This document shows, piece by piece, positions 48,962 through 61,263 of a stretch of 64,000 nt of DNA (position 1 is its first letter; every line of letters begins with the position of its first letter). Source of the DNA: Victivallales bacterium (lineage in GTDB: Bacteria > Verrucomicrobiota > Lentisphaeria > Victivallales > UBA1829); contig JBGUKN010000033.1 in the NCBI GenBank assembly GCA_045114455.1, positions 10,539-74,538 of the forward strand, written 5' to 3'. The position numbers and the translations under genes were made by a program. Below the pieces are notes generated by a model. That model saw only the letters and a list, made by a program, of their open reading frames with translations. It was not told where the DNA came from and made no database searches.

Positions 48962-50452
48962 TCAGATGTTGTCCAGGCCGATCGTCTGGTAGATGGAGGT
49001 GTATTTGCGGAAAAGCGCCTGAAGATCGCCGTTCCGGCGTTTTGCGTCGATGACCGTGTCAGCGGCGGTCTTCGCCTCGGTATTGCCCTGACGGAACGCG
49101 AATCCGTATTCCTCCGGGCGAATGACGACCTGCATCAACTTGACCTGGCCTTTGTGTTTATCCATGGCTAACTCAATTTCGCTCTCATCGTCGACGTAGG
49201 CGTCGATCTCGTTGTTGAGCAGGCCCCTGATGCCTTCCTCGGCATTATCGTAGTGGACCGTCTTTTTCGCATGAAGCTTGTTGACGGCATATTCCTCGTT
49301 CGTCGTGCCCTTCTCGGCCCCGATGACCTTGCCTTCCAGATCGGCTGTCCTGCTGAGTTTGGATCTTTCCTTCACAAGGATTTTCCGGGTGGTTTTTTCA
49401 TAGGAATTGGAGAAAAGGATCATCGTGGAGCGTTCCGGCGTGATGGAGATGCCTGACGTTCCCATGTCGGCGGCACCGTTCATCACGAGGGGCAGAATTT
49501 CGGAGAAAGGCACGATCCTGAACTGAACCGGACGTTTGAGTTCCTCGGCGATCGCTTCCGCCATTTCGATATCCACACCGGCCAGGCGGTTCCGGTTCAT
49601 GAACGCAAACGGTGCGAACGAAGGATCGAGGCAGACGACAAACGGCTTGACTCCATTTTCGTCTATCATCGCACCGTAGCCGGGATGCGTCCAGAGTTCC
49701 TCCATATGCTTTTCGCGGCTTTTGTGAAGCTGGCCGGAAGTCTTGAACTTTTCGATCACGGCATTGGCGGATTCCGCGAGTCCGGGATTTCCCTTGTTGA
49801 AAATAAAACCGTACTGCACTTCGCATAATGGTTCCGGGTTGATTCTGAAATCATCCCCGGTTCTCCGGACCAGGATCTCGGCTATAAGGTGATCCATGAC
49901 GGCGGCATCGGCCCTGTGGTCGGAGAGCGAGGCATTGACGTCCTCCTGCGTCAGATAGGGCAGGACGACTCTCGGTTTGATGACATCGCGCAGATATTCC
50001 AAGTCGGTGGTCCCCTCCTGTGCGGCGACACTGACCTCCTTCAACGCGGCTTCGTCCGTGATGTCGGATTCTTTCGGTACGACGGCGACTTGCGTGGAGA
50101 TGTCGTAGACGGTCGAAAAAAGAACACGTTTAGCTCGTTCCGGGGTGATCGTGATCGCGGAGATGCCGATGTCGGCCTCGCCTGAGGAAACGAGCGTGAA
50201 AACATTCTGGAACGGAACAATCTTGTACTGAACCGGACGCCCCAGGGCTTTTCCGATCTCCTCCACCAGGTCAACATCGATGCCGGCAACCGGTGGATCC
50301 ACGTTCGTGTTGAGGTAGTAACAGTATGGCGAGGAGGTTGCTTCGCAGGCGACGATCAAGGGCTTGTCCTTGTCGCTTTTGGAACAGGACATCATGAGGG
50401 TGGAAGTGATACCGACAAACAGAACAGCAAGAAGATAGAAAAGTTTTTTCAT
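48962..50452 (-). CDS. Lipoprotein with two tandem amino-acid-binding SBP family 3 domains
   Basis: Two GxDxD…ISITPER…GTT repeats; start moved to MKKLFY with MSC lipobox. Confidence 0.88.
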   Translation of the reverse strand: MKKLFYLLAVLFVGITSTLMMSCSKSDKDKPLIVACEATSSPYCYYLNTNVDPPVAGIDVDLVEEIGKALGRPVQYKIVPFQNVFTLVSSGEADIGISAITITPERAKRVLFSTVYDISTQVAVVPKESDITDEAALKEVSVAAQEGTTDLEYLRDVIKPRVVLPYLTQEDVNASLSDHRADAAVMDHLIAEILVRRTGDDFRINPEPLCEVQYGFIFNKGNPGLAESANAVIEKFKTSGQLHKSREKHMEELWTHPGYGAMIDENGVKPFVVCLDPSFAPFAFMNRNRLAGVDIEMAEAIAEELKRPVQFRIVPFSEILPLVMNGAADMGTSGISITPERSTMILFSNSYEKTTRKILVKERSKLSRTADLEGKVIGAEKGTTNEEYAVNKLHAKKTVHYDNAEEGIRGLLNNEIDAYVDDESEIELAMDKHKGQVKLMQVVIRPEEYGFAFRQGNTEAKTAADTVIDAKRRNGDLQALFRKYTSIYQTIGLDNI

Positions 50453-51131
50453 GGTGACCTCGTATTGACAGGACACAAAACAGAAATCAATATAAGATAC
50501 ACTCTGTTCGGCAGAATTGCAAGCAAAAAACTGCATAACACCTTCTGTTTCTTTTAAGCTTGAATGATTCATATTCGACAATCTTTGGTTTCGACAGGAA
50601 CTGATCAGGCAATCCATCCCAGGCAAGCACATAACGCTTGTATGCTGATCTGAAACCGTCAGGACATTTTGATGAATCAATACTCCATTTTCGTCCAACA
50701 ATCGTCATAATGCCGGGTTGATTCTTTGTTTGGACACACTATAATCAACCATACTGCCTTCCATTTCCTTGTACATGCTCAAATGACAGAAAAATCAATG
50801 ACTTGTATGCGCAATGTATGAAGTACTGAAAAAGCGCAACCTTGGATAACGAAAAATGCTTTTCCGCGCGACAGCATAAATCAGTCGCAAATCCCTTATT
50901 AATGATCCGTCCTGCTCCGGAATTTGAGAAAAGGGTTCTCAATATGATGGATGCCGGAGCTTGCTGGTCAACACCTCCGGCTCTGCAGGCATTCCCGCCA
51001 TTTCGCGGGAGAAAACCACCGCTCGGGATTTGTTTTTTCGGCGACTTGATGCTATATTATTTGTGACAGAATAAGATGCCGCCGGGTGCGTGAATGCCCT
51101 GACAGTCGGCTAAAAATGGGAGAACAACACA

Positions 51132-51815
51132 ATGGAAAACTCTGGTTTGGAGTGTGGTCGCGGTGTGGATCATGCCGCGGACAAGCCGGAAAACCGGCGC
51201 AAAAACAGCCTGCTTAGCAGACTATTCTCGAACTGTGCTCATCCGCGTGGTGCGATGGGACGCATGATGCTTTCAATGATGAACTGCTGGCATGGCCCGC
51301 TGACGAATTGGGGGCTGGGGTATGTTCCGTTCCAGGACGGATGGACGATCCTCGACGTGGGCTGTGGAGGCGGACAGACCCTTCAGAGGCTTCTCATGCG
51401 CAGCAAGGGCGCGATCGTGTATGGCATCGACATCTCCGACGAGAGCGTGGTGAAAGCGCGCAAGGTGAATGCCAATCTGCTCGACACACGGGTATTCGTA
51501 CAGCAGGGCTCTGCGGCTGAATTACCCTATGCTGACAGTACGTTTGACCTGGTGACGGCGGTAGAGACGGTCTATTTCTGGCCTGAACTGCCTCGTTGCT
51601 TCGAAGAAGTGAAACGGGTGCTGAAACCGGGCAGACTGTTCGCAATCCTCCTTGAGGTAGCATCCGCGGATTGTGCATGGACACGGGTCGTCGATGGCAT
51701 GACGACGTATTCGCCGGAGCAGCTGAAGGAATTTCTGGAGCAAGCGGGCTTTTTCGATGTGGAGATTTATCGCAAGAAGCCTTCCTACGCCACGATCATA
51801 AGCAGACGGCCTTAG
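51132..51815 (+). CDS. Class I SAM-dependent methyltransferase
   Basis: LDVGCGGG, FDLVTAVETVYFWP, RVLKPGG-like. Confidence 0.9.
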   Translation: MENSGLECGRGVDHAADKPENRRKNSLLSRLFSNCAHPRGAMGRMMLSMMNCWHGPLTNWGLGYVPFQDGWTILDVGCGGGQTLQRLLMRSKGAIVYGIDISDESVVKARKVNANLLDTRVFVQQGSAAELPYADSTFDLVTAVETVYFWPELPRCFEEVKRVLKPGRLFAILLEVASADCAWTRVVDGMTTYSPEQLKEFLEQAGFFDVEIYRKKPSYATIISRRP

Positions 51816-51832
51816 TTCAGGAGTTCGAAATC

Positions 51833-52327
51833 ATGCTTCTGACCGTTGTGCTTTCCCTCGTCATGATGGCGTCGCTCTTCCTGATGCTCTATGCCGCCGT
51901 GGCGCTGGTCCAGGACAAGCGGCTGTTCACCTCGGCCCCGAAGGACATTCAGGCGGCCGTTCAGCCGAAAGCGGAACGTTTTCCCGGAGCACACCTTCTG
52001 GGGTGGTGTCTGCTGGTGTTCGCCGTATTCCTGTTTATCGGCACGATCATCTGCGGCGGATGGGACGGTGTGCGGAACGGCTTTTCCTTCCGGCAGTTCT
52101 TCTTCCGGTTCCTATTCATGCTGGTCTCGCTGAAAGCGTTCGACGTGCTGGTTTTCGACTGGTTCCTGCTCTGCCACTCACGGTTCTTTCCGCACTACTA
52201 CCCGGAAGTCTCCGGTTTGGTTGGACCGCACCAGTTCGGTTTCAACTGGCGATCCCATCTGCTGCATCTTCTGGCGTTTCTGCCTGTTTCTGCCGGGATC
52301 GCATGGATGTGCACGTTGTTTTCCTGA
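51833..52327 (+). CDS. Conserved membrane protein
   Basis: 164 aa, 4 TM, APKDIQ and FFPHYYPE motifs; start moved to MLLTVV. Confidence 0.65.
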   Translation: MLLTVVLSLVMMASLFLMLYAAVALVQDKRLFTSAPKDIQAAVQPKAERFPGAHLLGWCLLVFAVFLFIGTIICGGWDGVRNGFSFRQFFFRFLFMLVSLKAFDVLVFDWFLLCHSRFFPHYYPEVSGLVGPHQFGFNWRSHLLHLLAFLPVSAGIAWMCTLFS

Positions 52328-52342
52328 GGAGAAAATGAACTT

Positions 52343-53023
52343 ATGACAAGACATGATGAGATCAGGGCGTCCTACCGGAAGCTCGGAAACAGCGCCGATT
52401 TCTACGACGGCATCATCACCCGTTCGACGCTGATCGGGAAACTGGTGGATTCCGTGGTATGGGGGCTGAACGGGGAACTCGCGGCGAAGTGGGCAAACGA
52501 CGCATTGTCGTCCGTGCCGGAAGGTTTCGGCGGGAAACTGCTGGAAGTCCCGGTCGGAACGGGCGTCCTGACGATGCCGTTGTACCGGAGCCTGCCGAAA
52601 GCGTCCGTTACCTGCCTCGACTATTCCGCGGACATGATGGCGAACGCCCGGAAACGAGCGGAGGAAATGAAGCTGAACAACGTGTCATTCGTGCAGGGAG
52701 ACGTGGGTGCGCTGCCGTTCGCGGATGAAAGTTTCGACCTCGTCCTGTCGTTGAACGGGTTCCATGCGTTCCCCGACAAGGACGCGGCGTTCCGCGAGAC
52801 GTTCCGCGTACTGAAACCCGGCGGGATCTTCTGCGGCTGTTTCTACATCGCGGGCGAGTTCCGGCGTACGGACTGGTTTGTGCGGAGAGTCTACGAGCCG
52901 AAGGGATTCTTTACGCCGCCGTTCGAGACGCGGGAAAGCCTGACCGCCAGGCTGCGCGCCATGTATGCCGACGTGAACGTGTCCGCTGTTCGCGCCGAGG
53001 GTATCTTCTCCTGTCGGAAATGA
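52343..53023 (+). CDS. Class I SAM-dependent methyltransferase (UbiE-like)
   Basis: LEVPVGTG, QGDVGALPF, NGFHAFPDK, RVLKPGG. Confidence 0.9.
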   Translation: MTRHDEIRASYRKLGNSADFYDGIITRSTLIGKLVDSVVWGLNGELAAKWANDALSSVPEGFGGKLLEVPVGTGVLTMPLYRSLPKASVTCLDYSADMMANARKRAEEMKLNNVSFVQGDVGALPFADESFDLVLSLNGFHAFPDKDAAFRETFRVLKPGGIFCGCFYIAGEFRRTDWFVRRVYEPKGFFTPPFETRESLTARLRAMYADVNVSAVRAEGIFSCRK

Positions 53024-53227
53024 GCGAATCGAGACAGGAGATACTGTTCATTTCCAAAATCAGCCGTAAACTGAAACACTCGTGTTTTTCCTGAAAAACG
53101 ATTGCATTCCGCTTGTTTTACAGGAAAAATATGCTATATTATTCAATACAAAAGGGACAGCCGGATGTGCTACGGCATGGGGAGGAGGATTCCGGCCGTT
53201 CAGGGAACAAAACAAAAAGGGTAGAAC

Positions 53228-53773
53228 ATGAAATCATGTCATTGTGCAAACGGGGTCGCTCCGTTGAAAGACCTGCTGTCCGCATACCGGGAGCAGATGA
53301 GCATTCCGTCGTTCACCGGTGTTCTGGAGCTGGTTCACGCCATGCCCGGACGAATCCGCCTCAGAATCCCATGCCTCCGCAGAAACGTGCCCGATGCGGA
53401 ACTGTTCCGTCGTCGGCTGTCCGGCCTGAAGGGAATCAAACAGGTCTCCGTGAACGTGTTTCTGGGAACGGTCCTGATCGTTTACGATCCGGCTGTCCTG
53501 ACGCCGATGGTGATCGTTTCGGCGGCGACGCACTGCTTCGAATTCGAGCATCTGCGGAAATCGCATCAGTCCGTGCTCGGTCGCGGCGTAAAGAACGTGC
53601 GGTTCGCCCTGGACCAAGCGCTTCTCCGCAACACACGCGGATTCGTGGACGTCCGTTCGGCCATGACACTGGTCCTGCTCATCGTGCTGATCCGCGGCCT
53701 CGTCGGGCGCGGTCGTGCGGCGTTCAATCCGCTGAGCGTGATCTGGTGGCTTTTCCAGGCCGTCGATCATTGA
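53228..53773 (+). CDS. HMA2-domain membrane protein (FezC-like)
   Basis: VHAMPGRIRL, GTVLIVYD, C-terminal hydrophobic helices. Confidence 0.75.
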   Translation: MKSCHCANGVAPLKDLLSAYREQMSIPSFTGVLELVHAMPGRIRLRIPCLRRNVPDAELFRRRLSGLKGIKQVSVNVFLGTVLIVYDPAVLTPMVIVSAATHCFEFEHLRKSHQSVLGRGVKNVRFALDQALLRNTRGFVDVRSAMTLVLLIVLIRGLVGRGRAAFNPLSVIWWLFQAVDH

Positions 53774-53791
53774 GGTGAAAGGAGCGCGCCC

Positions 53792-54181
53792 ATGCTGAAC
53801 AATCCCCTGCTTCAAGTGTGGCTGTCCTGCGTCAAGAAGATCAAACCCGTCCACAGCATCCCCGGCAGACTTCGCGTGAACATCTACGGCGTCCGGCAAT
53901 ACCCGGAACTGGCGCAGGAATACGCCTCCGTCCTGCTTGACAAAACCCGCCATCTGCCCGGTGTGCAGTCCGTCGAATTGAGCGTTCTGACCGGGAATAT
54001 CCTGTTGACCTACGACGTGCGAGTGACTACGGAGCACGAGCTTTTGGAACGCCTGAACACGGCCTGGACGGCGCTGATGCAGTATTTCCGCGATGTCGAC
54101 CAGCCGGAAATGATCGTGCCGGAAGCGATCGCGCGTGTGCTGGACCGGGTTTGGAATCCGCCTCACACAAGCAGACAATAA
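53792..54181 (+). CDS. Soluble HMA2-domain protein
   Basis: VHSIPGRLRV, TGNILLTYD. Confidence 0.75.
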   Translation: MLNNPLLQVWLSCVKKIKPVHSIPGRLRVNIYGVRQYPELAQEYASVLLDKTRHLPGVQSVELSVLTGNILLTYDVRVTTEHELLERLNTAWTALMQYFRDVDQPEMIVPEAIARVLDRVWNPPHTSRQ

Positions 54182-54212
54182 CATCTTTTGCAGTTCAAAA
54201 AAAGGAGAGATC

Positions 54213-56438
54213 ATGGTTTTTACGAACAATCGGAAACGCCCGCTCCTGAAATGCGGATTTGCCCACAGGATGCGCGGACGTGTGCGGATCACCTGCCGTG
54301 CGGTCCGTTATCTGCGACAGGAACAGGACGACCTGGAGGCGCATTTTTCCGAACTGCGCGGGGTGCTGTCACTGCGGATGAACTGCGCGGCATCGTCCGT
54401 CATCCTCCAGTACGACCCCGGACGCACCAACGACGAGGAGCTGCTGGAGTCCGTCGAGCACATCATCGGGATGCACTCCCTGAACGCCCTGCAGAAGGAG
54501 CGCGAGGAACGCAACATGCTGGCCGTGCAGGAACGCGACCTGCATGAAGAAGGCCTTTCGACCATGCTCCTGCGAAGCATTTCGGCGGGCGGACTTCTGC
54601 TGACCTCGTGGATCACAAGGGCGGCTGTCCCCGCCACGCTCACCGGACGAATCTTCGGTTTCACCGGGTTCGGCGCATTGATGCTGGCGGCACCGCTGTT
54701 CCGCAGCGGACTCGGCGCATTGAGGAAAAACCTTCTCCCGAACGCCGACACCTTGAGCGCGATGGCTGTGCTTTCCAGCGTGCTGGCGGGCAAGAGTGCA
54801 TCAGCCCTGACCGTACTGCTCCTGCATGACGCCGCCGAAGCCATGACCGTGTACACGATGGACCGCACACGGAACGCCATCCGCGACATGCTGTCCGTGG
54901 ACAACCGCGAGGAAGTCTGGCGGCTGAAATCGGACGAGCCGGATTCCCCGCTGGAGCGCATCTGCGTTTCCGAGCTGAAACGGAACGACCTGATCGTGAT
55001 CCACACGGGCGAAAAGATCTGTGCCGACGGCACGGTCGTTTCCGGCCGCGCCACCATCAACCAGGCTCCCATCACGGGCGAATTCGAGTCCGTCCTGCGG
55101 GAGAAAGGCGGCAAGATCTTCGCAGGCACGGTGATCGTCGAGGGCACGATCACGGTCCGTGTGGAATCGGTCGGCGACCAGACCGCCGTTTCCCGCATCA
55201 TTCATATGGTCGAGGATGCGGAGGGCAAGAAAGCCGCGATCCAGACCTATGCGGACCGTTTCTCCTCCGCGCTGGTCCCGGTCAACATCCTGCTCGCCGG
55301 CGTCGTCTATCTGGCCACGCGCGACATCGGGCGCGCACTGAACATGCTCATCATCGATTATTCGTGCGGGATCCGGCTCTCCACAGCGGCCGCGCTTTCG
55401 GCGGCGATCAGCACTGCCGCCCGCGAAGGCGTCCTCATCAAGGGCGGCGGCTCCATCGAAGCGCTGACCGAAGCCGACACGCTGATTCTGGACAAGACCG
55501 GCACGCTGACCGAGGGAAAGCCCCGCGTCGAAAGCGTCATGACCATTTCCGACCACTATTCGCGCATGGACGTGATCCAGCTCGCGGCCGCGGCCGAGGA
55601 GACCTCGAAACACCCGATGGCCGCCGCCATTCTCGCCCATCTTCAGAGGTCCGGCGGGAGCATCCCGCTTCATACGGAAATCCAGACCATTGTCGGGCGC
55701 GGCGTGTACACGGACGTGGACGGTCATTGCATCCGCGTCGGCAGCAAACGGTTCCTCAACGAATGCGGCATCCACACGCACCCGATGCGTGATCAGGCAT
55801 CGAAGCTCTTCGCCAACGGCGAAAGCGTGATCTTCGTGGCGCGCGATGACGAGATCATCGGCCTCATCGGCATCCGCGATCCCCTGCGCGAGAACATGAA
55901 GAAAGCACTGAACCGGCTTCGCCTCACCGGAGTCGATGACATCGTCCTGCTGACCGGAGACCTGGAACAGCAGGCGGACGTCGTGGCGCGTCGCCTCGGT
56001 CTGGACGGATTCGAATCCGAACTCCTGCCGGAGGACAAGGCGCGCGCCGTGCTTCGTCTGCAATCGCGCGGCAGCAAAGTCGTGATGGTCGGCGACGGCA
56101 TCAACGACGCCCCCGGACTGGCCTATGCGGACGTCGGCGTCGCGCTCGGCAAGACCCGAACCGACGTGGCGATGGAAGCCGCGGACATCACCATCGCGGG
56201 CGACAATGCCCTCATGCTGTCCGGCGTGTACGGCCTGGCGCATCACACCATGGATGTAATCAAGCAGAATTTCTTCGTCTCCATCGGCATCAACACGGTC
56301 GGACTGCTCTTCGGCGGACTCGGCATTCTGCCGGTCATCGCAGGCGCGGTCATGCACAACGCCAGCACCATCCTCGTCGTCGGCAACTCCCTCCGCATAT
56401 TCTTCTACGACATGCACGAGCCCATGAAGCACACCTAA
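54213..56438 (+). CDS. P1B-6-type heavy-metal P-type ATPase (FezB-like)
   Basis: HRMRGRVR N-terminus, DYSCG, DKTGTLT, SKHP, GDGINDAP, HNAST; start moved to MVFTNN after AAGGAG. Confidence 0.88.
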   Translation: MVFTNNRKRPLLKCGFAHRMRGRVRITCRAVRYLRQEQDDLEAHFSELRGVLSLRMNCAASSVILQYDPGRTNDEELLESVEHIIGMHSLNALQKEREERNMLAVQERDLHEEGLSTMLLRSISAGGLLLTSWITRAAVPATLTGRIFGFTGFGALMLAAPLFRSGLGALRKNLLPNADTLSAMAVLSSVLAGKSASALTVLLLHDAAEAMTVYTMDRTRNAIRDMLSVDNREEVWRLKSDEPDSPLERICVSELKRNDLIVIHTGEKICADGTVVSGRATINQAPITGEFESVLREKGGKIFAGTVIVEGTITVRVESVGDQTAVSRIIHMVEDAEGKKAAIQTYADRFSSALVPVNILLAGVVYLATRDIGRALNMLIIDYSCGIRLSTAAALSAAISTAAREGVLIKGGGSIEALTEADTLILDKTGTLTEGKPRVESVMTISDHYSRMDVIQLAAAAEETSKHPMAAAILAHLQRSGGSIPLHTEIQTIVGRGVYTDVDGHCIRVGSKRFLNECGIHTHPMRDQASKLFANGESVIFVARDDEIIGLIGIRDPLRENMKKALNRLRLTGVDDIVLLTGDLEQQADVVARRLGLDGFESELLPEDKARAVLRLQSRGSKVVMVGDGINDAPGLAYADVGVALGKTRTDVAMEAADITIAGDNALMLSGVYGLAHHTMDVIKQNFFVSIGINTVGLLFGGLGILPVIAGAVMHNASTILVVGNSLRIFFYDMHEPMKHT

Positions 56439-56524
56439 CCGTTCGTTTTGGAGCCGCGTCCATCACCGGAAGCGGTTTCCTCCCATAATCCCCCGTCAAC
56501 CCTCAAAAAGGAGCTTGAAAAACA

Positions 56525-56806
56525 ATGGCTATCACATCGGAACATCTGGTCGGAGCCGCCGTCGGCATCGGAGCCGCGGCAGTCGGGTTCTATCTCTACC
56601 AGAAAAATCAGGACAAGATCAACGAATTCCTGCGGACGCACGGCCTCGACATCCCGGTCAGCGAAAACCAGCCGCTCGAGTCCATGAACATCGAAGACCT
56701 TGCCACGCTCAAGGAACGCATCGAGGATCTGATCGCCGAGCGCGAACTCGCCGCGAAGGAAGCCGCAGCAGCCCCGGCCGCGGAGCCCGCGCCCGCTCAG
56801 GCGTAA
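56525..56806 (+). CDS. Small GxxxG membrane protein (FezA-like)
   Basis: GAAVGIGAAAVG TM then KERIEDLIAE helix; AAGGAG RBS. Confidence 0.65.
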   Translation: MAITSEHLVGAAVGIGAAAVGFYLYQKNQDKINEFLRTHGLDIPVSENQPLESMNIEDLATLKERIEDLIAERELAAKEAAAAPAAEPAPAQA

Positions 56807-56928
56807 TATCCTTCCAATCGTTTCTTTTGTCCGCACATCCGGTCCCGGAGACGCTTTCTCATCTGTGTACTGAGCGCACTCCGGGGCTGTGGATGTTTTT
56901 TTCCCTGCGGACTGTTTGAGAACCAACC

Positions 56929-57420
56929 ATGAAAACGCAAAAACACCTCCCCGTTTTCGGCGTGGGGCCGATCTATGTCTTCTCCATCGCCGTCCTGACT
57001 TTCGCGGCATACCGGATGCGGAATCTGCCCGCGTTGTCGTCCGGGCTGATCGACGTGCTCCAGAAGCCGCTGTTCATCCTGGGCGTCATCCTGATCGTGC
57101 TGGGCGTGTTCATCTGGTTTCAGGCCGCCGTCGTGTCGAGACTGCTTGACGGCATCATGAAGAATCGCCTCGTAACTACGGGAATCTATGCGTGGACCCG
57201 CAATCCCCTCTACACGGCGTTCATGATCGTCTGCACCGGGGTGATTCTCATGGCTGGAAATCTCTGGTTTTTCTTCCTGCCGTTCGTTTTCTGGGGCTTC
57301 ATGACCGTGCTGATGAAGCACACCGAGGAACAATGGCTGCGGGACTTGTACGGAAAGCAGTATGACGAGTATTGCCGCCGGGTCAACCGCTGCTGGCCCT
57401 GGTTCCCTCGGAAGAAATGA
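56929..57420 (+). CDS. Isoprenylcysteine carboxyl methyltransferase (ICMT/PEMT) family protein
   Basis: LVTTGIYAWTRNPLY, EE..L…YG..YDEYC. Confidence 0.88.
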   Translation: MKTQKHLPVFGVGPIYVFSIAVLTFAAYRMRNLPALSSGLIDVLQKPLFILGVILIVLGVFIWFQAAVVSRLLDGIMKNRLVTTGIYAWTRNPLYTAFMIVCTGVILMAGNLWFFFLPFVFWGFMTVLMKHTEEQWLRDLYGKQYDEYCRRVNRCWPWFPRKK

Positions 57421-57444
57421 GGTAAAAAAAACTCGGGCAGCCAC

Positions 57445-58227
57445 ATGAAGCAGTACGAAATCACGGTCCATGAGTTCGGGAAACAGAATCCCGACGTCGT
57501 TGTCATGTTTCATCCGCTCGGCGTGTGGTGGGATGTCTTCGACCGCGTGATCCCGATCCTGGAACGCCGTTTCCACCTCGTGATACCCGCCGTTCCGGGG
57601 CTTGACCCCGACCAGCCGGATCTGACGTTCACCAGCATTGAGATAATCGAAGAACAGATCGAGACCTGGCTGATCAGGCACGGCCACCAACATGTCGCCT
57701 GCCTGTACGGATGCTCCATGGGCGGAGCACTGGCGATTCGCATGCTTGCGCGAGGCGTCATTGCCCCAAAATGCGCTGTCATTGACGCCGGGATCACGCC
57801 GTATCGGATGCCGAAGGCGTTTACCTACCTGATCGGAGCACGCGACTGGTGCGCCGTCGAGTTTGCGAAACACGTCGGCGTGCGGATGCTGAATGCCTTC
57901 ACGGATACGTCGAAGTTCACACGGGACGATCTGCTGTATGTGAAGAAAGTCCTGTCCGGCATGAGCTCGAAGACGATCTGGCGGGCGTTCTATTCCACGA
58001 ACAACTATTCCATGCCCGAATCCGTTTCCCGTCCGCCGTGCCCCGTCCAATACTGGTACGGCGAGGCGGAACGCTCCGCCCGCAAGTGGGACATCGCGTA
58101 CATGAAAAAGGTTTTCCCCGATACGGTCTTCGTGGAGAACAAGGGGCAGGACCATGCGGAATTCTTCACGCTCCACCCGGAAGCGTTTTGCAAACAGCTT
58201 GAAATGTTCATCCGAGTATCAGGATAA
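57445..58227 (+). CDS. Alpha/beta hydrolase
   Basis: GCSMGG nucleophile elbow, C-terminal DHAE. Confidence 0.85.
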   Translation: MKQYEITVHEFGKQNPDVVVMFHPLGVWWDVFDRVIPILERRFHLVIPAVPGLDPDQPDLTFTSIEIIEEQIETWLIRHGHQHVACLYGCSMGGALAIRMLARGVIAPKCAVIDAGITPYRMPKAFTYLIGARDWCAVEFAKHVGVRMLNAFTDTSKFTRDDLLYVKKVLSGMSSKTIWRAFYSTNNYSMPESVSRPPCPVQYWYGEAERSARKWDIAYMKKVFPDTVFVENKGQDHAEFFTLHPEAFCKQLEMFIRVSG

Positions 58228-58325
58228 CCCCAGCTCCCCGGAACACACAAAGAGCGGAAAGCCGCCGCAAATGGTCCACTGCATAACCATGCGGAGCTTC
58301 CCGCCCGAAATGTTAGGCTGGAGAA

Positions 58326-58820
58326 TCAGCCGAGGTGCGCTTTCAGCTTTTCGACCCATGCCCCGATGCGGGACGAGGTCTTTTCCGATTCGTTGTTGTC
58401 GTCCAGCGCGAGCCCGCAGAACATGCCGCCCTCGGCCGCCGCGGACGAGCTGTGCCCGTAGCCTTCAGCGGAGGTCTGGCCGATCAGGTTCGCGCCACGT
58501 CTTTTCGCTGTCTTGGCGAGGATGCCCATCGCGTCGCAGTAGGTGTCGGCGAATCCGCTCTGGTCGCCGAGCCCGAAGACCGCGACGAGTTTCCCGTTGA
58601 GGTCGGCATTTTCCAGCAGGCCGATCTTCACGGCCCAATCGTCCTGAAGTTCGCCAAGTCCCCATGTGGAACTGCCGAGGATCAGCAGATCGGCCTTGAA
58701 ATCGTCCGCCGTCGCGTTCGCCACGTTAATCGCCTGGACGCCGAATGCAGCCGCGATTTCCGCAGCCGCGCTCTCTGTTGCGCCTGTTGTACTTCCGAAA
58801 ATGACTTTTACGTTTGCCAT
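58326..58820 (-). CDS. fldA: Long-chain flavodoxin
   Basis: FGSTTGATE, GSSTWGLGELQ, FGLGDQ, GLALD. Confidence 0.92.
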   Translation of the reverse strand: MANVKVIFGSTTGATESAAAEIAAAFGVQAINVANATADDFKADLLILGSSTWGLGELQDDWAVKIGLLENADLNGKLVAVFGLGDQSGFADTYCDAMGILAKTAKRRGANLIGQTSAEGYGHSSSAAAEGGMFCGLALDDNNESEKTSSRIGAWVEKLKAHLG

Positions 58821-58835
58821 GTTGCATGACTCCCT

Positions 58836-59456
58836 TTATTGAGTGATTGGGTTAATGGTGGATATGTGTTCCATAAATGCCTGCGAGTTCCCGCAGACGT
58901 TCAAAATGCGTTCCGCCGCTGCCTCGACTCTGCTGTACAGCGACATCCGAGCGATGGACTCCCCCGCGTCGCCGTAAACCGCCCAGCGGCCGTGTTCCAC
59001 CGGAGTCCGGGGCAGATTCGCCATGAATCCTGCCACGTCCTTCGCCGGATAGCCGAGGAAGATGCCGACCTCGTGCGGCAGGCCGTTTCCCCGCCGGAAA
59101 CGCCGTTGCAGTTCCCGGAGCATGGCGTCGCATCCCGCATCGGTCCGGTAGCCGCAGTGTGCGAGCAGAGCGCGGTTCTCCGGTTCGGAAAGCGTGCGCG
59201 CCATCGTTTCGGGGTGGTAGAAAAGCACCAGCGTGCTGTCGCGTTCGACAAGCAGCTCCAGATAGTCCAGCTCCAGGATGTTCAGGATGTCGCGCCTGTG
59301 CAGACAGACCGGATCGCCGTTGTCGGTTTCCGCCGTGAAACACCGCCTGATGCGGAGCAGTTCGCCGGGCTTCACGCCACGTCGGACCGCCGCGGTCTTC
59401 AGCAGGAGAAAACGCAGGAGGCTTTTCCGATGAATGAAACAGGTTGTCGGTGCCAT
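58836..59456 (-). CDS. DUF3793 family protein
   Basis: GVKPGEL, PHEVGIFLGYP..DV.GF, WAVY; start moved to MAPTTC. Confidence 0.85.
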   Translation of the reverse strand: MAPTTCFIHRKSLLRFLLLKTAAVRRGVKPGELLRIRRCFTAETDNGDPVCLHRRDILNILELDYLELLVERDSTLVLFYHPETMARTLSEPENRALLAHCGYRTDAGCDAMLRELQRRFRRGNGLPHEVGIFLGYPAKDVAGFMANLPRTPVEHGRWAVYGDAGESIARMSLYSRVEAAAERILNVCGNSQAFMEHISTINPITQ

Positions 59457-59519
59457 AACTTTGTTTTGCCTAACTCTTGAAAAACGCCGAATCCATCCGG
59501 TCGGCACATGATACGGGTG

Positions 59520-59723
59520 AAAAAAGACAAGTCCCGGAACCATCCTGCAAATCCGGTTGGAGGACCGGACCCGCACCTGCTTTACCCTACCCGGCATTTT
59601 CGTTCAAATTCTGCCGAAACAGAACTCAAACGGAGCGCCGGACCCTTTTTCACATTCTCCCATTTTGGACAGCGGCACACCTGCACCAGTACGCCGTGAA
59701 TGGTTCCGGGACTTTTGCGTCAT
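59520..59723 (-). ncRNA. Candidate structured leader RNA of unknown class
   Basis: Perfect 15-bp closing stem, central UUCG hairpin, downstream U run, immediately after a consensus promoter. Confidence 0.4.
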
Positions 59724-59729
59724 GGTAAT

Positions 59730-59773
59730 ACTATATCATGCCTTTTTTGAGATGTCAAGTTAGTTTAAACTAA
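59730..59773 (-). promoter_or_regulatory. Promoter TTGACA-N17-TATAGT with adjacent palindrome TTAGTTTAAACTAA
   Basis: -35 at 59753-59758, -10 at 59730-59735, palindrome at 59760-59773. Confidence 0.75.
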
Positions 59774-59841
59774 TTTTTTGAATTTTTCTGAAAACGAGTT
59801 CCGTCTACTGTCACGATGTCGGGTTGATACAACCAAATGCA

Positions 59842-59878
59842 GTCAGCCCCGGAACCATCGTCGGCTTCGGGGGCTGAC
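59842..59878 (-). terminator. Hairpin after the Gly-rich gene
   Basis: GTCAGCCCC…GGGGCTGAC 9-bp inverted repeat; U tract weak. Confidence 0.5.
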
Positions 59879-59964
59879 GTTCATCTCGCATTTGGAAATG
59901 AAAAATGAAAAAAGGCCAAATCCTTGAGGAGATGGCCATGGAAGAATCATTCGTTACTCAGAAT

Positions 59965-61263
59965 TCAGAAACCGAAGGCTCCCTGCGGTCCAAAGCCGCC
60001 GAACCCACCGAAGTCGCTCCGAGGAGCAAATCCGCCGAAGTCGGCATCGAAGCCGCCGCGAGGAGCGGCGCCGCGTTCGCGGTTCTGGTGTCTGCCTTCG
60101 CGTCTGCCTTCGCGTCTGCCACGGGGCTGTCTGTCTTGGATCGTGGCTTTCGGCGTGCCGAAACCAGCCTGCGGTGCCGGAACGATACCGGGACCGGCAA
60201 AGCCGTTCTGAGGAACAGGAGCAGGACCTGCGCCGATTCCCGCCTGTGGAACGGGAGCTGCGCCGGGGTCGAAACCACTGAAGTCAGCCAGGGGAGCAGG
60301 GGCCGGGCCAATCTGCGGTGTAGGAGCTGCGCCGAGGCCGAAGCCAGCTTGGGGAGCCGGAGCAGGACCAACAGCGGGAGCGTTGCCAAACCCGCCGAAC
60401 CCGCCGAACCCGCCGAAACCTCCGAAATCGCCGAACCCGCCGGCGGGAGCACTCCCGAAGCCACCGGTCGGTGCCGGAGCAACGCTGATACCGAAGCCCC
60501 CCTGCGGAGCAGAAGCGAAGCCGAGGCCGAAGCCAGCCTGCGGAACAGGAGCTGCGCCGGGGCCGAAACCACCGGTCGGAGCCGGAACAGCACCAGGTCC
60601 GAAACCTGCCTGAGGACCAAACTGAGGCGCGGGTCCACCGAAACCACCGAAGCCGCCGAAATCACCAGTCGGAGCCGGAGCAACGCTGATACCGAAGCCC
60701 CCCTGAGGAGCAGGAGCGGAGCCAATAGCTGGAGCGCCAAAGCCTAACTGCGGAGTCTGAGCGATGCCGGGAGCGCCGAAACCAGTGGAAGGAACAGGCG
60801 CTGCACCGAAACCGATGCCAGTCTGCGGAGCCGGAGCGGGGCCGACAGCGGGAGCATTGCCAAACCCGCCGAAACCTCCGAAATCGCCGAAGCCGCCAGC
60901 GGGAGCGCCCCCGAAGCTACCGGTCGGAGCCGGAGCAGCGCCAATGCCGCCGAAGCCTCCGGCAGGAGTTGTTCCGGGTGTTGTGAAACCGCCAAAGCCG
61001 AAGCCGTTAGCGGGGACAGGACCGGCAGCTGGTGCGCCGCCGCCGAAACCGCCAAAGCCGAAGCCGCCGAAGTCAGCGCCAGGTGCAGTCATGCCGGGTC
61101 CATTGAAGACTCCGGCAGGAGCGGGAGCGGTTCCCGGTCCCATACCGGGACCGCCAAAACCGCCTGCGCCGAGCCCCATTCCTCCGCCAAAGCCTTGTGC
61201 GTAGGTGTTGACGGACACGATTCCAGCAAGTGCGAGGACGATGAGTGTAGTCATTTTCTTCAT
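59965..61263 (-). CDS. Secreted Gly/Pro/Ala/Phe low-complexity repeat protein
   Basis: Signal peptide MKKMTT…TYA; GGFG/APAP repeats; AAGGAG RBS. Confidence 0.75.
   Translation of the reverse strand: MKKMTTLIVLALAGIVSVNTYAQGFGGGMGLGAGGFGGPGMGPGTAPAPAGVFNGPGMTAPGADFGGFGFGGFGGGAPAAGPVPANGFGFGGFTTPGTTPAGGFGGIGAAPAPTGSFGGAPAGGFGDFGGFGGFGNAPAVGPAPAPQTGIGFGAAPVPSTGFGAPGIAQTPQLGFGAPAIGSAPAPQGGFGISVAPAPTGDFGGFGGFGGPAPQFGPQAGFGPGAVPAPTGGFGPGAAPVPQAGFGLGFASAPQGGFGISVAPAPTGGFGSAPAGGFGDFGGFGGFGGFGGFGNAPAVGPAPAPQAGFGLGAAPTPQIGPAPAPLADFSGFDPGAAPVPQAGIGAGPAPVPQNGFAGPGIVPAPQAGFGTPKATIQDRQPRGRREGRREGRHQNRERGAAPRGGFDADFGGFAPRSDFGGFGGFGPQGAFGF

Follow-up and report, generated by a model that had tools for sequence, protein, structure and literature searches.

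Analysis of a 64-kb window (64,000 nucleotides of contig JBGUKN010000033.1 from a Victivallales bacterium, to which all positions refer unless a locus number is given) identified a compact and well-delimited operon of four co-directional open reading frames (ORFs) on the + strand, with gaps of 18, 31 and 86 bp, that encodes two HMA_2-type proteins, a P1B-type ATPase and a small GxxxG protein (53228-56806; Table 1). By its motifs and its position in trees the ATPase is a member of a family marked by D[YF]SCG in the fourth transmembrane helix (TM4), here called the SCG family, which is probably the closest relative of the ferrosome ATPase FezB yet lies outside FezB. Ferrosomes are a recently recognised lipid-bounded iron store that matters for gut anaerobes, for example Clostridioides difficile under nutritional immunity. 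We tentatively read the operon, with somewhat less than even confidence, as an uncharacterised fez-like four-gene module of the SCG type that would sequester iron, or possibly manganese, for storage.

The ATPase ORF extends over 54135-56438, and its true start is almost certainly the ATG at 54213, giving a protein of 741 aa, because this codon is preceded by a good ribosome-binding site (AAAGGAGAGATC) and homologs are 734-742 aa long. The protein matches TIGR01525, the model for P1B heavy-metal ATPases (E=4.5e-155). The TM4 sequence DYSCG (aa 382-386, nt 55356-55370; fuller string DYSCGIR) lies 45 residues ahead of DKTGT (aa 427, nt 55491-55505), and the last helix, TM6, carries HNAST (aa 715-719, nt 56355-56369), which bears out the first-pass annotation of a P1B ATPase with DYSCG and HNAST in place of CPC. 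The N-terminus is arginine-rich (AHRMRGRVRITCR, HRMRGRVR), and a weak HMA_2 match (aa 43-116 of the long ORF) marks an HMA_2-like domain there. FezB (P1B-6) has been defined by D[Y/F]SCA in TM4, HNxxT in TM6 and an arginine-rich N-terminus, a motif that is also present in related non-FezB ATPases (Grant & Komeili, bioRxiv 10.1101/2020.01.10.902569). The window ATPase shares HNxxT and the arginine-rich motif (RxR / RxRxR, not CxxC) but has DYSCGIR where FezB has D[Y/F]SCA. In a census of the TM4 motif among the 120 best database homologs, with the position anchored on DKTGT, 118 carried D[YF]SCG, the other two were truncated, and SCA was found in none; the DLSCG/DLSSG strings of homologs belong to the actuator domain (aa 254), not to TM4. 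Since 118/120 best homologs carry D[YF]SCG, SCG is a signature of the family and not, as had been supposed, a metal-site variant of this organism.

A group with these features was already visible in 2020. In Supplementary Table 1 of Grant & Komeili (10.1101/2020.01.10.902569), where ATPases are grouped by TM4/6 signature motif and phylogenetic placement, a separate group of 40 entries (colour #FCE7F1) combines D[YF]SCG[ILV][KR] with HNxxT and the arginine-rich motif. Its members include Clostridium kluyveri CKL_1140, C. sporogenes, C. botulinum and Clostridium acetireducens CLAOCE_12990, as well as Fusobacterium, Leptotrichia, Selenomonas, Succinivibrio and Bacillus plasmids. The window ATPase shows the same set, with DYSCGIR for D[YF]xCG[ILV][KR] in TM4, HNAST for HNxxT in TM6 and HRMRGRVR at the N-terminus, and CLAOCE_12990 (locus L036) has identical motifs, 49% identity to the window ATPase and the same neighbours. 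The table lists ATPases only, and no description of the gene cluster, the small protein or a function of this group was found in searchable papers; the cluster and its small protein are defined here. Genes 100% identical to the window ATPase occur in rumen metagenome-assembled genomes (MAGs) that bear the label Lentisphaeria or Victivallales, among them RGIG6864 from sheep rumen, and further rumen Victivallales MAGs carry genes with 93-94% identity.

The ATPases were placed in three neighbour-joining (NJ) analyses with 200 bootstraps each. Proxies took the place of the validated FezB of Desulfovibrio magneticus, Shewanella putrefaciens and C. difficile, which stand outside the trees: an Azospirillum brasilense plasmid gene whose motifs match FezB ABAZ39_22910 of the table, a fez cluster on an Arcobacter plasmid that contains DUF2202 and GxxxG genes, a plasmid cluster of Cereibacter that includes FeoA and HMA2 genes and, for the Firmicutes type, DFSCALK genes from gut metagenomes (L196, with a single frameshift, and five C-terminal halves). 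FezB matches in PLSDB were proteobacterial only, and a scan of IMG/VR gave only CPC-type pumps. The trees also took in CtpC-like pumps that have DUF1490 neighbours, FezH-like pumps, and CPC, CSC and CPD pumps of the classical kind. In tree 1 (38 sequences, 699 columns), the SCG ATPases and the three proteobacterial FezB each formed a clade at 100%, the two appeared as sisters in 14.5% of replicates, and all arginine-rich pumps grouped at 94%. With a full-length Firmicutes-type FezB added (tree 2), the corresponding values were 99.5% for SCG, 91% for FezB, 70% for their sister relation and 92% for all arginine-rich pumps, so that in the two full-length trees the arginine-rich ATPases stand together against the CPC pumps at 92-94%. 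Tree 3, built on the C-terminal half with nine FezB, gave 93% for SCG, 81% for FezB, 10% for SCG with FezB and 66% for all arginine-rich pumps, with deeper nodes unresolved; no replicate (0%) joined SCG to the DFSCA FezB. Throughout, the window ATPase fell in a 93-100% clade with CLAOCE_12990, a Fusobacterium pump (L081) and plasmid pumps of Priestia and B. thuringiensis (L082, L084), and it was nested in FezB in none of the three analyses. Within the SCG clade, the gut Planctomycetes-Verrucomicrobia-Chlamydiae (PVC) subclade of Victivallales, Kiritimatiellota and Opitutales was monophyletic at 100% in tree 1. The first-pass annotation had likened the pump to P1B-6 and had fixed clustering outside that subfamily beforehand as the outcome against it; taken strictly, this is the outcome that the trees gave.

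Both genes upstream of the ATPase encode HMA_2 proteins, one of them a membrane protein, as first annotated. The product of gene 1 matches Pfam HMA_2 (PF19991) over its full length (E=1.4e-32, model positions 2-153 of 154), carries the motif VHAMPGRIRLR and has a hydrophobic C-terminal segment (aa 142-160) and an amphipathic tail; proteins of this type are encoded upstream of the ATPase at most loci compared. The gene 2 product, which is related to that of gene 1, matches the N-terminal part of HMA_2 with 29.1 bits, just below the 30-bit cut-off, carries VHSIPGRLRV and shows no transmembrane or hydrophobic segment in its hydropathy profile. Both have counterparts in canonical fez clusters, with about 30% identity over 60 residues to HMA2 or arginine-rich proteins: gene 1 shares 32% identity over 60 aa with the HMA2 protein of the Cereibacter fez cluster, and gene 2 is related to the 104-aa arginine-rich protein of the Arcobacter fez cluster. 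The arrangement expected of a fez cluster, with neighbouring arginine-rich HMA proteins that include a membrane-bound FezC-like one (181 aa) and a soluble one (129 aa), is present in the window. Of the proposal of a fez-like operon, the architecture and the relation of the partners to canonical fez-cluster proteins hold, whereas the ATPase lies outside the FezB clade.

Gene 4 encodes the 93-aa GxxxG protein with an acidic helix that had been noticed at the outset, and with its hydrophobic GxxxG region it adjoins the pump as small proteins do in fez clusters. A Gly/Ala-rich N-terminal helix with G10, G14, G16 and G21 (GxxxGxGxxxxG) is accompanied by a YxKNQ juxtamembrane motif, the acidic helix (KERIEDLIAERE) with the conserved pattern KE-x2-ED-x-IAE[RK]E, and an Ala/Pro-rich tail. 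When 28 diverse homologs were aligned, G10, G14, Y25, L59, K63, E64, E67, D68, A71 and E72 were invariant, and a HMMER scan of 1.84 billion protein representatives retrieved 112 relatives. No Pfam family was matched, including YtxH, and none of the 28 homologs hit DUF1490 (PacL) or DUF6110 at E<=1; no NCBIfam model or PDB sequence was matched either, and weak hits to Reticulon and H-NS were rejected as compositional. Profile comparison with hhalign gave 93.5% probability for a 90-aa GxxxG protein encoded in the Arcobacter fez cluster and 0.3% for a PacL-like DUF1490 protein, and comparison with the C-terminal helix of a YtxH-like fez protein gave 41% (ELKERMED vs LKERIEDL).

The same cassette was found in 41 distinct lineages, counted as ATPases less than 90% identical to one another, so the four-gene layout is not a product of chance. 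The order is a HMA2 membrane protein, a HMA2 protein, the ATPase, usually a third arginine-rich HMA2-like membrane protein (~264 aa), and the small protein; this gene-order criterion (HMA2-TM / HMA2 / ATPase / (third HMA2-like) / KE-ED-IAE protein) was defined in this analysis and not taken from the literature. The small gene lies downstream in 38/41 lineages, the remaining three loci being cut or masked. The third HMA2-like protein (~196-264 aa), encoded between the ATPase and the small gene, is seen for example at L089:12238-13032, L036:3544 onward and L082:4285-4875. According to the locus titles, the carriers belong to some 15 phyla: Lentisphaerota, Kiritimatiellota, Verrucomicrobiota, Planctomycetota, Bacillota, Fusobacteriota, Syntrophobacteraceae, Nitrospirales, Calditrichota, Latescibacterota, GN15, KSB1, Armatimonadota, Gemmatimonadota and Acidobacteriota. 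To the SCG carriers the table of Grant & Komeili (10.1101/2020.01.10.902569) adds Spirochaetes and Succinivibrionaceae, and it lists Akkermansia, a PVC bacterium, with a true FezB. Because the cluster occurs in ~15 phyla, including gut Kiritimatiellota and Opitutales, and Akkermansia has FezB, the lineage is not, as had been thought, an unexpected one; within the SCG family the window is an ordinary case and no special one. Three loci binned as Firmicutes (L015, Anaerovoracaceae; L029, Limosilactobacillus gorillae; L033, Clostridiales CCNA10) have ATPases and small proteins more than 90% identical to those of Kiritimatiellota MAGs, for which mis-binning is more likely than gene transfer.

The four genes form one transcription unit, as judged from a hairpin behind the upstream methyltransferase gene and a strong hairpin with a U7 run behind gene 4. 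The former has no clean U-run behind it and is hence only terminator-like; it is likely to be the 5' boundary of the unit. The 3' terminator folds at -41.5 kcal/mol (z=-4.69), and 0/200 shuffles folded equally well. A search of 50000-60500 against Rfam at E<=1 gave no riboswitch or known RNA leader. An inverted repeat in the operon promoter region contains two T5-CCTG-A5-like copies and closely precedes an extended -10-like element, TGcTATATT; scanning for the sigma-70 consensus gave no promoter there. The repeat may be an operator for a different regulator from the one considered below, and its conservation can be assessed in near-identical strains only.

Table 1. Features of the SCG-type operon and its surroundings in the 64-kb window
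Feature	Position	Strand	Description
Gene 1	53228..53773	+	181-aa HMA_2 protein, hydrophobic C-terminal part, FezC-like in architecture
Gene 2	53792..54181	+	129-aa soluble HMA_2-type protein, chaperone-like, analogous to FezD
Gene 3	54213..56438	+	741-aa P1B-type ATPase, D[YF]SCG / HNxxT family
Gene 4	56525..56806	+	93-aa small GxxxG protein
Hairpin just 3' of the stop codon of the upstream methyltransferase gene (52343-53023)	53016..53055	+	-16.8 kcal/mol, z=-3.4
Inverted repeat TTTTTCCTGAAAAAC-N15-GTTTTACAGGAAAAA in operon promoter region	53085..53129	+	15-nt arms, 93% complementary
Intrinsic terminator, operon 3' end	56829..56912	+	Long hairpin, then U7 at 56896-56902
DUF3793 and long-chain flavodoxin FldA pair (context, outside operon)	58836-59597 and 58326-58820	-	1.5 kb downstream
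Promoter TTGACA-17-TATAGT of the DUF3793/flavodoxin pair, with palindrome	59730..59773	-	-35 TTGACA at 59753-59758

Three methyltransferase genes flank the operon (51132-51815, 52343-53023 and 56929-57420), two of them of the class I S-adenosylmethionine (SAM)-dependent type and one of a PEMT/ICMT-like membrane type. Relatives carry further methyltransferase paralogs in varying order, and the neighbourhood is methyltransferase-rich and prone to rearrangement. On the - strand, 59965-61263 encodes a 432-aa protein with a signal peptide (MKKMTTLIVLALAGIVSVNTYAQ) followed by extreme Gly/Phe/Pro/Ala-rich low complexity, in which GFGG repeats are numerous; no Pfam family matches it.

The flavodoxin and DUF3793 genes had been noticed early on and taken to fit an iron-limitation locus. 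Their position was confirmed, and as a sign of iron limitation the pair is weak evidence alone, because its synteny with the cluster is kept only in the closest Victivallales relatives; it is the orthologous loci that link the family to iron or manganese. In Tepidibacter hydrothermalis, a flavodoxin-Fur-FeoA-FeoB-FeoA-FeoA-FeoB array is followed directly by the cluster on the same strand. Within the fetched flanks of the 41 lineages, FeoB was found in 7/41, DtxR-family repressors in 5/41 and either of them in 11/41. Among the 135 nearest neighbour ORFs from 30 diverse loci, the commonest specific families were FeoB, FeoA and Fe_dep_repr_C, and none of the 25 neighbour families listed was ArsR, MerR or CsoR. 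The gene behind the small gene in the 93%-identical Victivallales (L003-L008) is of the DtxR family and encodes a FeoA-like C-terminal domain (L005:8617-9369); in the window and its 100%-identical relatives the same position is held by the PEMT/ICMT-like methyltransferase gene (56929-57420). The L005-type regulator has Asp at the position of DtxR Met10, as in MntR, keeps Cys102, Glu105 and His106, as in DtxR/IdeR, and matches MntR structures and IdeR/DtxR structures equally well. Taken together, this comparative context links the SCG family to iron or manganese homeostasis, and the link to iron, though indirect, is real.

A candidate operator was found at the flavodoxin promoter, where the perfect palindrome TTAGTTTAAACTAA (59760-59773) stands two bases upstream of the -35 hexamer. 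TTAG-N6-CTAA has a single site in the 64-kb window, with 0.09 expected by chance, and the palindrome is kept at the flavodoxin promoter in L001, L002, L003, L005, L007 and L013. In five Opitutales loci, AAGTTAG-N6-CTAAC overlaps the spacer or the putative -10 of the orthologous ATPase-operon promoter (L023:4996, L025:4995, L055:4983, L056:4924, L068:4921), and two more loci have it with one mismatch. The form TTAGC-N4-GCTAA adjoins DtxR-family genes in GN15 and two unclassified MAGs (L038:2084 and 2783, L061:4804 and 4932, L071:4696), and in an Acidobacteriota MAG it lies upstream of the cluster (L077:4758), where no DtxR-family gene was found. TTAG-N6-CTAA probably serves a DtxR-type metal repressor as its operator. 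Its occurrence both at the flavodoxin promoter of the window and in the operon promoters of Opitutales suggests that in PVC bacteria flavodoxin and the SCG operon share one metal-dependent repressor. The position in Opitutales is of the repressor type and would fit the logic of ferrosomes or uptake, with induction at low metal as in the C. difficile ferrosome system used here for comparison, not that of detoxification.

Compared with the SCG group #FCE7F1, the window has the same TM4 and TM6 signatures, the same arginine-rich motif and the same gene order around the pump, and it differs in that its gut-PVC subclade is without the gene for the third HMA2-like protein (X264). The fez clusters (fezABC in D. 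magneticus, six-gene operons in S. putrefaciens and Rhodopseudomonas palustris, and C. difficile) resemble the operon in the arginine-rich N-terminus, in the D[YF]SC (TM4) and HNxxT (TM6) signatures, in soluble and membrane-bound arginine-rich HMA-type proteins and in small GxxxG proteins, and both cluster families occur in anaerobes and near Feo, Fur and DtxR genes. The operon differs from them in that TM4 ends in Gly and not Ala, in the separate clade of its pump, in a small protein that is a family of its own with the KE-x2-ED-x-IAE[RK]E helix, and in that its cluster contains neither a DUF2202 ferritin-like gene nor a DUF4405 or FeoA-domain one; of the two, it is the fez clusters for which iron organelles are on record. 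Large fez clusters contain a second ATPase, FezH ([AS]CPC[AS]T / HIxHT), from the same arginine-rich superclade; it has another TM4/TM6 ligand set, FezH-like pumps have 26-27% identity to the window ATPase, and FezH is absent from the window. The SCG clusters of Syntrophobacteraceae contain a second arginine-rich ATPase with LASPCAT in TM4 and HIFHT in TM6 (L043:6109-8409, L044:9972-12203, L047:11173-13407), which resembles FezH and is a further link between the two cluster families.

In the storage module that we propose, the P1B ATPase would pump a divalent metal out of the cytosol, most likely Fe(II), because the TM4/TM6 ligands (Asp-Tyr-Ser-Cys ... His-Asn-x-x-Thr) are those of FezB. The 181-aa membrane protein and the 129-aa soluble protein would act as partners or chaperones through the arginine-rich HMA_2 fold that is also present at the pump N-terminus. 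By analogy with Fez GxxxG and PacL proteins, the GxxxG helix of the 93-aa protein would mediate its oligomerisation within the membrane; the invariant acidic helix of this protein may bind to the arginine-rich HMA_2 domains and gather the components into a membrane patch or a vesicle that sequesters the metal. Expression would be expected to be de-repressed at low metal. The further step, that SCG clusters build a membrane-bound metal-storage compartment of their own and represent a second ferrosome-like organelle lineage under DtxR-type repressors, we regard as doubtful.

Several observations weigh against the storage module. The searchable literature contains no test of ferrosome formation for any member of the SCG family. 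The sister relation of SCG to FezB is only moderately supported and is lost in the tree of the C-terminal half, and the window ATPase is 32% identical to proteobacterial FezB, 35% to CtpC-like and about 30% to CPC pumps. The hhalign match of the small protein to the Arcobacter Fez GxxxG protein spans just the 19-residue TM motif. X264 is absent from the window and from the gut or rumen PVC loci L001-L035, L055, L056, L058 and L068, a subclade that, to judge from these loci, has lost it and has a minimal four-gene version. In the 64-kb window, tblastn detected no genes for Feo (FeoA, FeoB), Fur or DtxR, and no iron genes were found by Pfam among ten flanking ORFs. TTAG-N6-CTAA is absent from the operon's own promoter region, and the DtxR-like regulator of the sister lineage mixes Fe-type and Mn-type ligand residues.

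It is rather unlikely, in our estimate, that the operon instead encodes a plasma-membrane platform for metal efflux or metallation of the CtpC-PacL 'effluxosome' type, in which the small single-pass protein, by means of its GxxxG helix and acidic cytosolic helix, would stabilise the pump and cluster it in the cell membrane, Zn, Mn, Cd or excess Fe would be exported and no organelle would be formed. The CtpC-PacL1 and CtpG-PacL2 systems of Mycobacterium tuberculosis likewise combine an arginine-rich HMA_2-type P1B pump with HN-x-x-S/T in TM6 and a paired single-pass protein whose TM helix is a Gly zipper and whose cytosolic helix is acidic and Ala-rich. PacL (~90 aa) is required for clustering, for which its GxxG TM motif is essential, and its Glu/Ala repeats bind the N-terminal domain of the pump; the 93-aa protein has this layout too. 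CtpC-like pumps fall in the same arginine-rich/HN clade (92-94%), their similarity to the window ATPase is on a par with that of FezB (35% vs 32%), and the Joint Genome Institute (JGI) label of homologs is 'manganese/zinc-transporting P-type ATPase C'. SCG and CtpC grouped weakly, at 51.5%, without Firmicutes FezB (tree 1), but this support fell to 8% once the latter was added (tree 2). The DYSCG of TM4 is near FezB and not the CPC of CtpC (ACPCAVG in the references). No sequence similarity was detected between PacL and the small protein: DUF1490/DUF6110 was found in 0/28 small proteins, and the profile comparison with the PacL-like DUF1490 protein agrees. The partner gene, upstream in CtpC systems, here lies downstream, and its product has no His-rich metal-binding tail, an optional feature of the PacL type. 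Whereas CtpC occurs in a context of Zn/Cd/Mn resistance, the neighbours of SCG clusters are uptake (Feo) and starvation genes (flavodoxin, Fur/DtxR) and not detoxification regulators of the ArsR, MerR or Zur type, and where the operator lies in Opitutales points to repression at high metal supply.

A manganese version, with the same architecture but with Mn(II) stored, buffered or exported under a MntR-like regulator of the DtxR family, appears improbable. FeoB paralogs can carry Mn, as in the case of Porphyromonas FeoB2, which together with the Asp at Met10 of the sister-lineage regulator and its equally good match to MntR and IdeR/DtxR structures speaks for manganese, as does a reference-list entry in which CtpC is described as a Mn pump. 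The same regulator, however, keeps Cys102, Glu105 and His106, the iron-site residues of DtxR/IdeR, and the Tepidibacter cluster is flanked by two Feo systems, by Fur and by flavodoxin, which is a classic iron-sparing protein. The transmembrane ligand set is that of FezB, whose organelles contain iron. Most improbable of all is a true FezB (P1B-6) ferrosome operon with a local A-to-G change of the metal site in an unexpected lineage. DYSC, HNAST, the arginine-rich N-terminus, GxxxG and the HMA partners are all present, and DYSCGLK in the FezB-group Coriobacteriaceae 68-1-3 (Grant & Komeili table) indicates that A-to-G occurs within FezB. This reading is opposed by the 0% nesting with the DFSCA group and FezB monophyly at 81-100%, by SCG in all 118 complete best homologs, by the listing of the ortholog CLAOCE_12990 in the non-FezB group, and by the spread of the family over ~15 phyla, with the PVC bacterium Akkermansia already having FezB.

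With its common pump ligands, HMA_2 partners and GxxxG proteins, in addition to an invariant small protein of its own, the SCG family would be a direct extension of ferrosome biology, and its clusters occur in many gut, rumen, sediment and pathogen genomes. The storage hypothesis is testable at once, because cultivable carriers exist (Clostridium, Fusobacterium, Tepidibacter and Priestia plasmids). If the efflux platform were true, the family would link the ferrosome and mycobacterial effluxosome systems mechanistically. If SCG clusters do build a storage compartment of their own, organelle-based storage of iron or manganese would extend to ~15 more phyla, including Victivallales, Kiritimatiellota, Opitutales, Fusobacterium, toxigenic clostridia and Bacillus plasmids, and the KE-ED-IAE protein of 80-110 aa would be a scaffold that docks arginine-rich HMA_2 domains.

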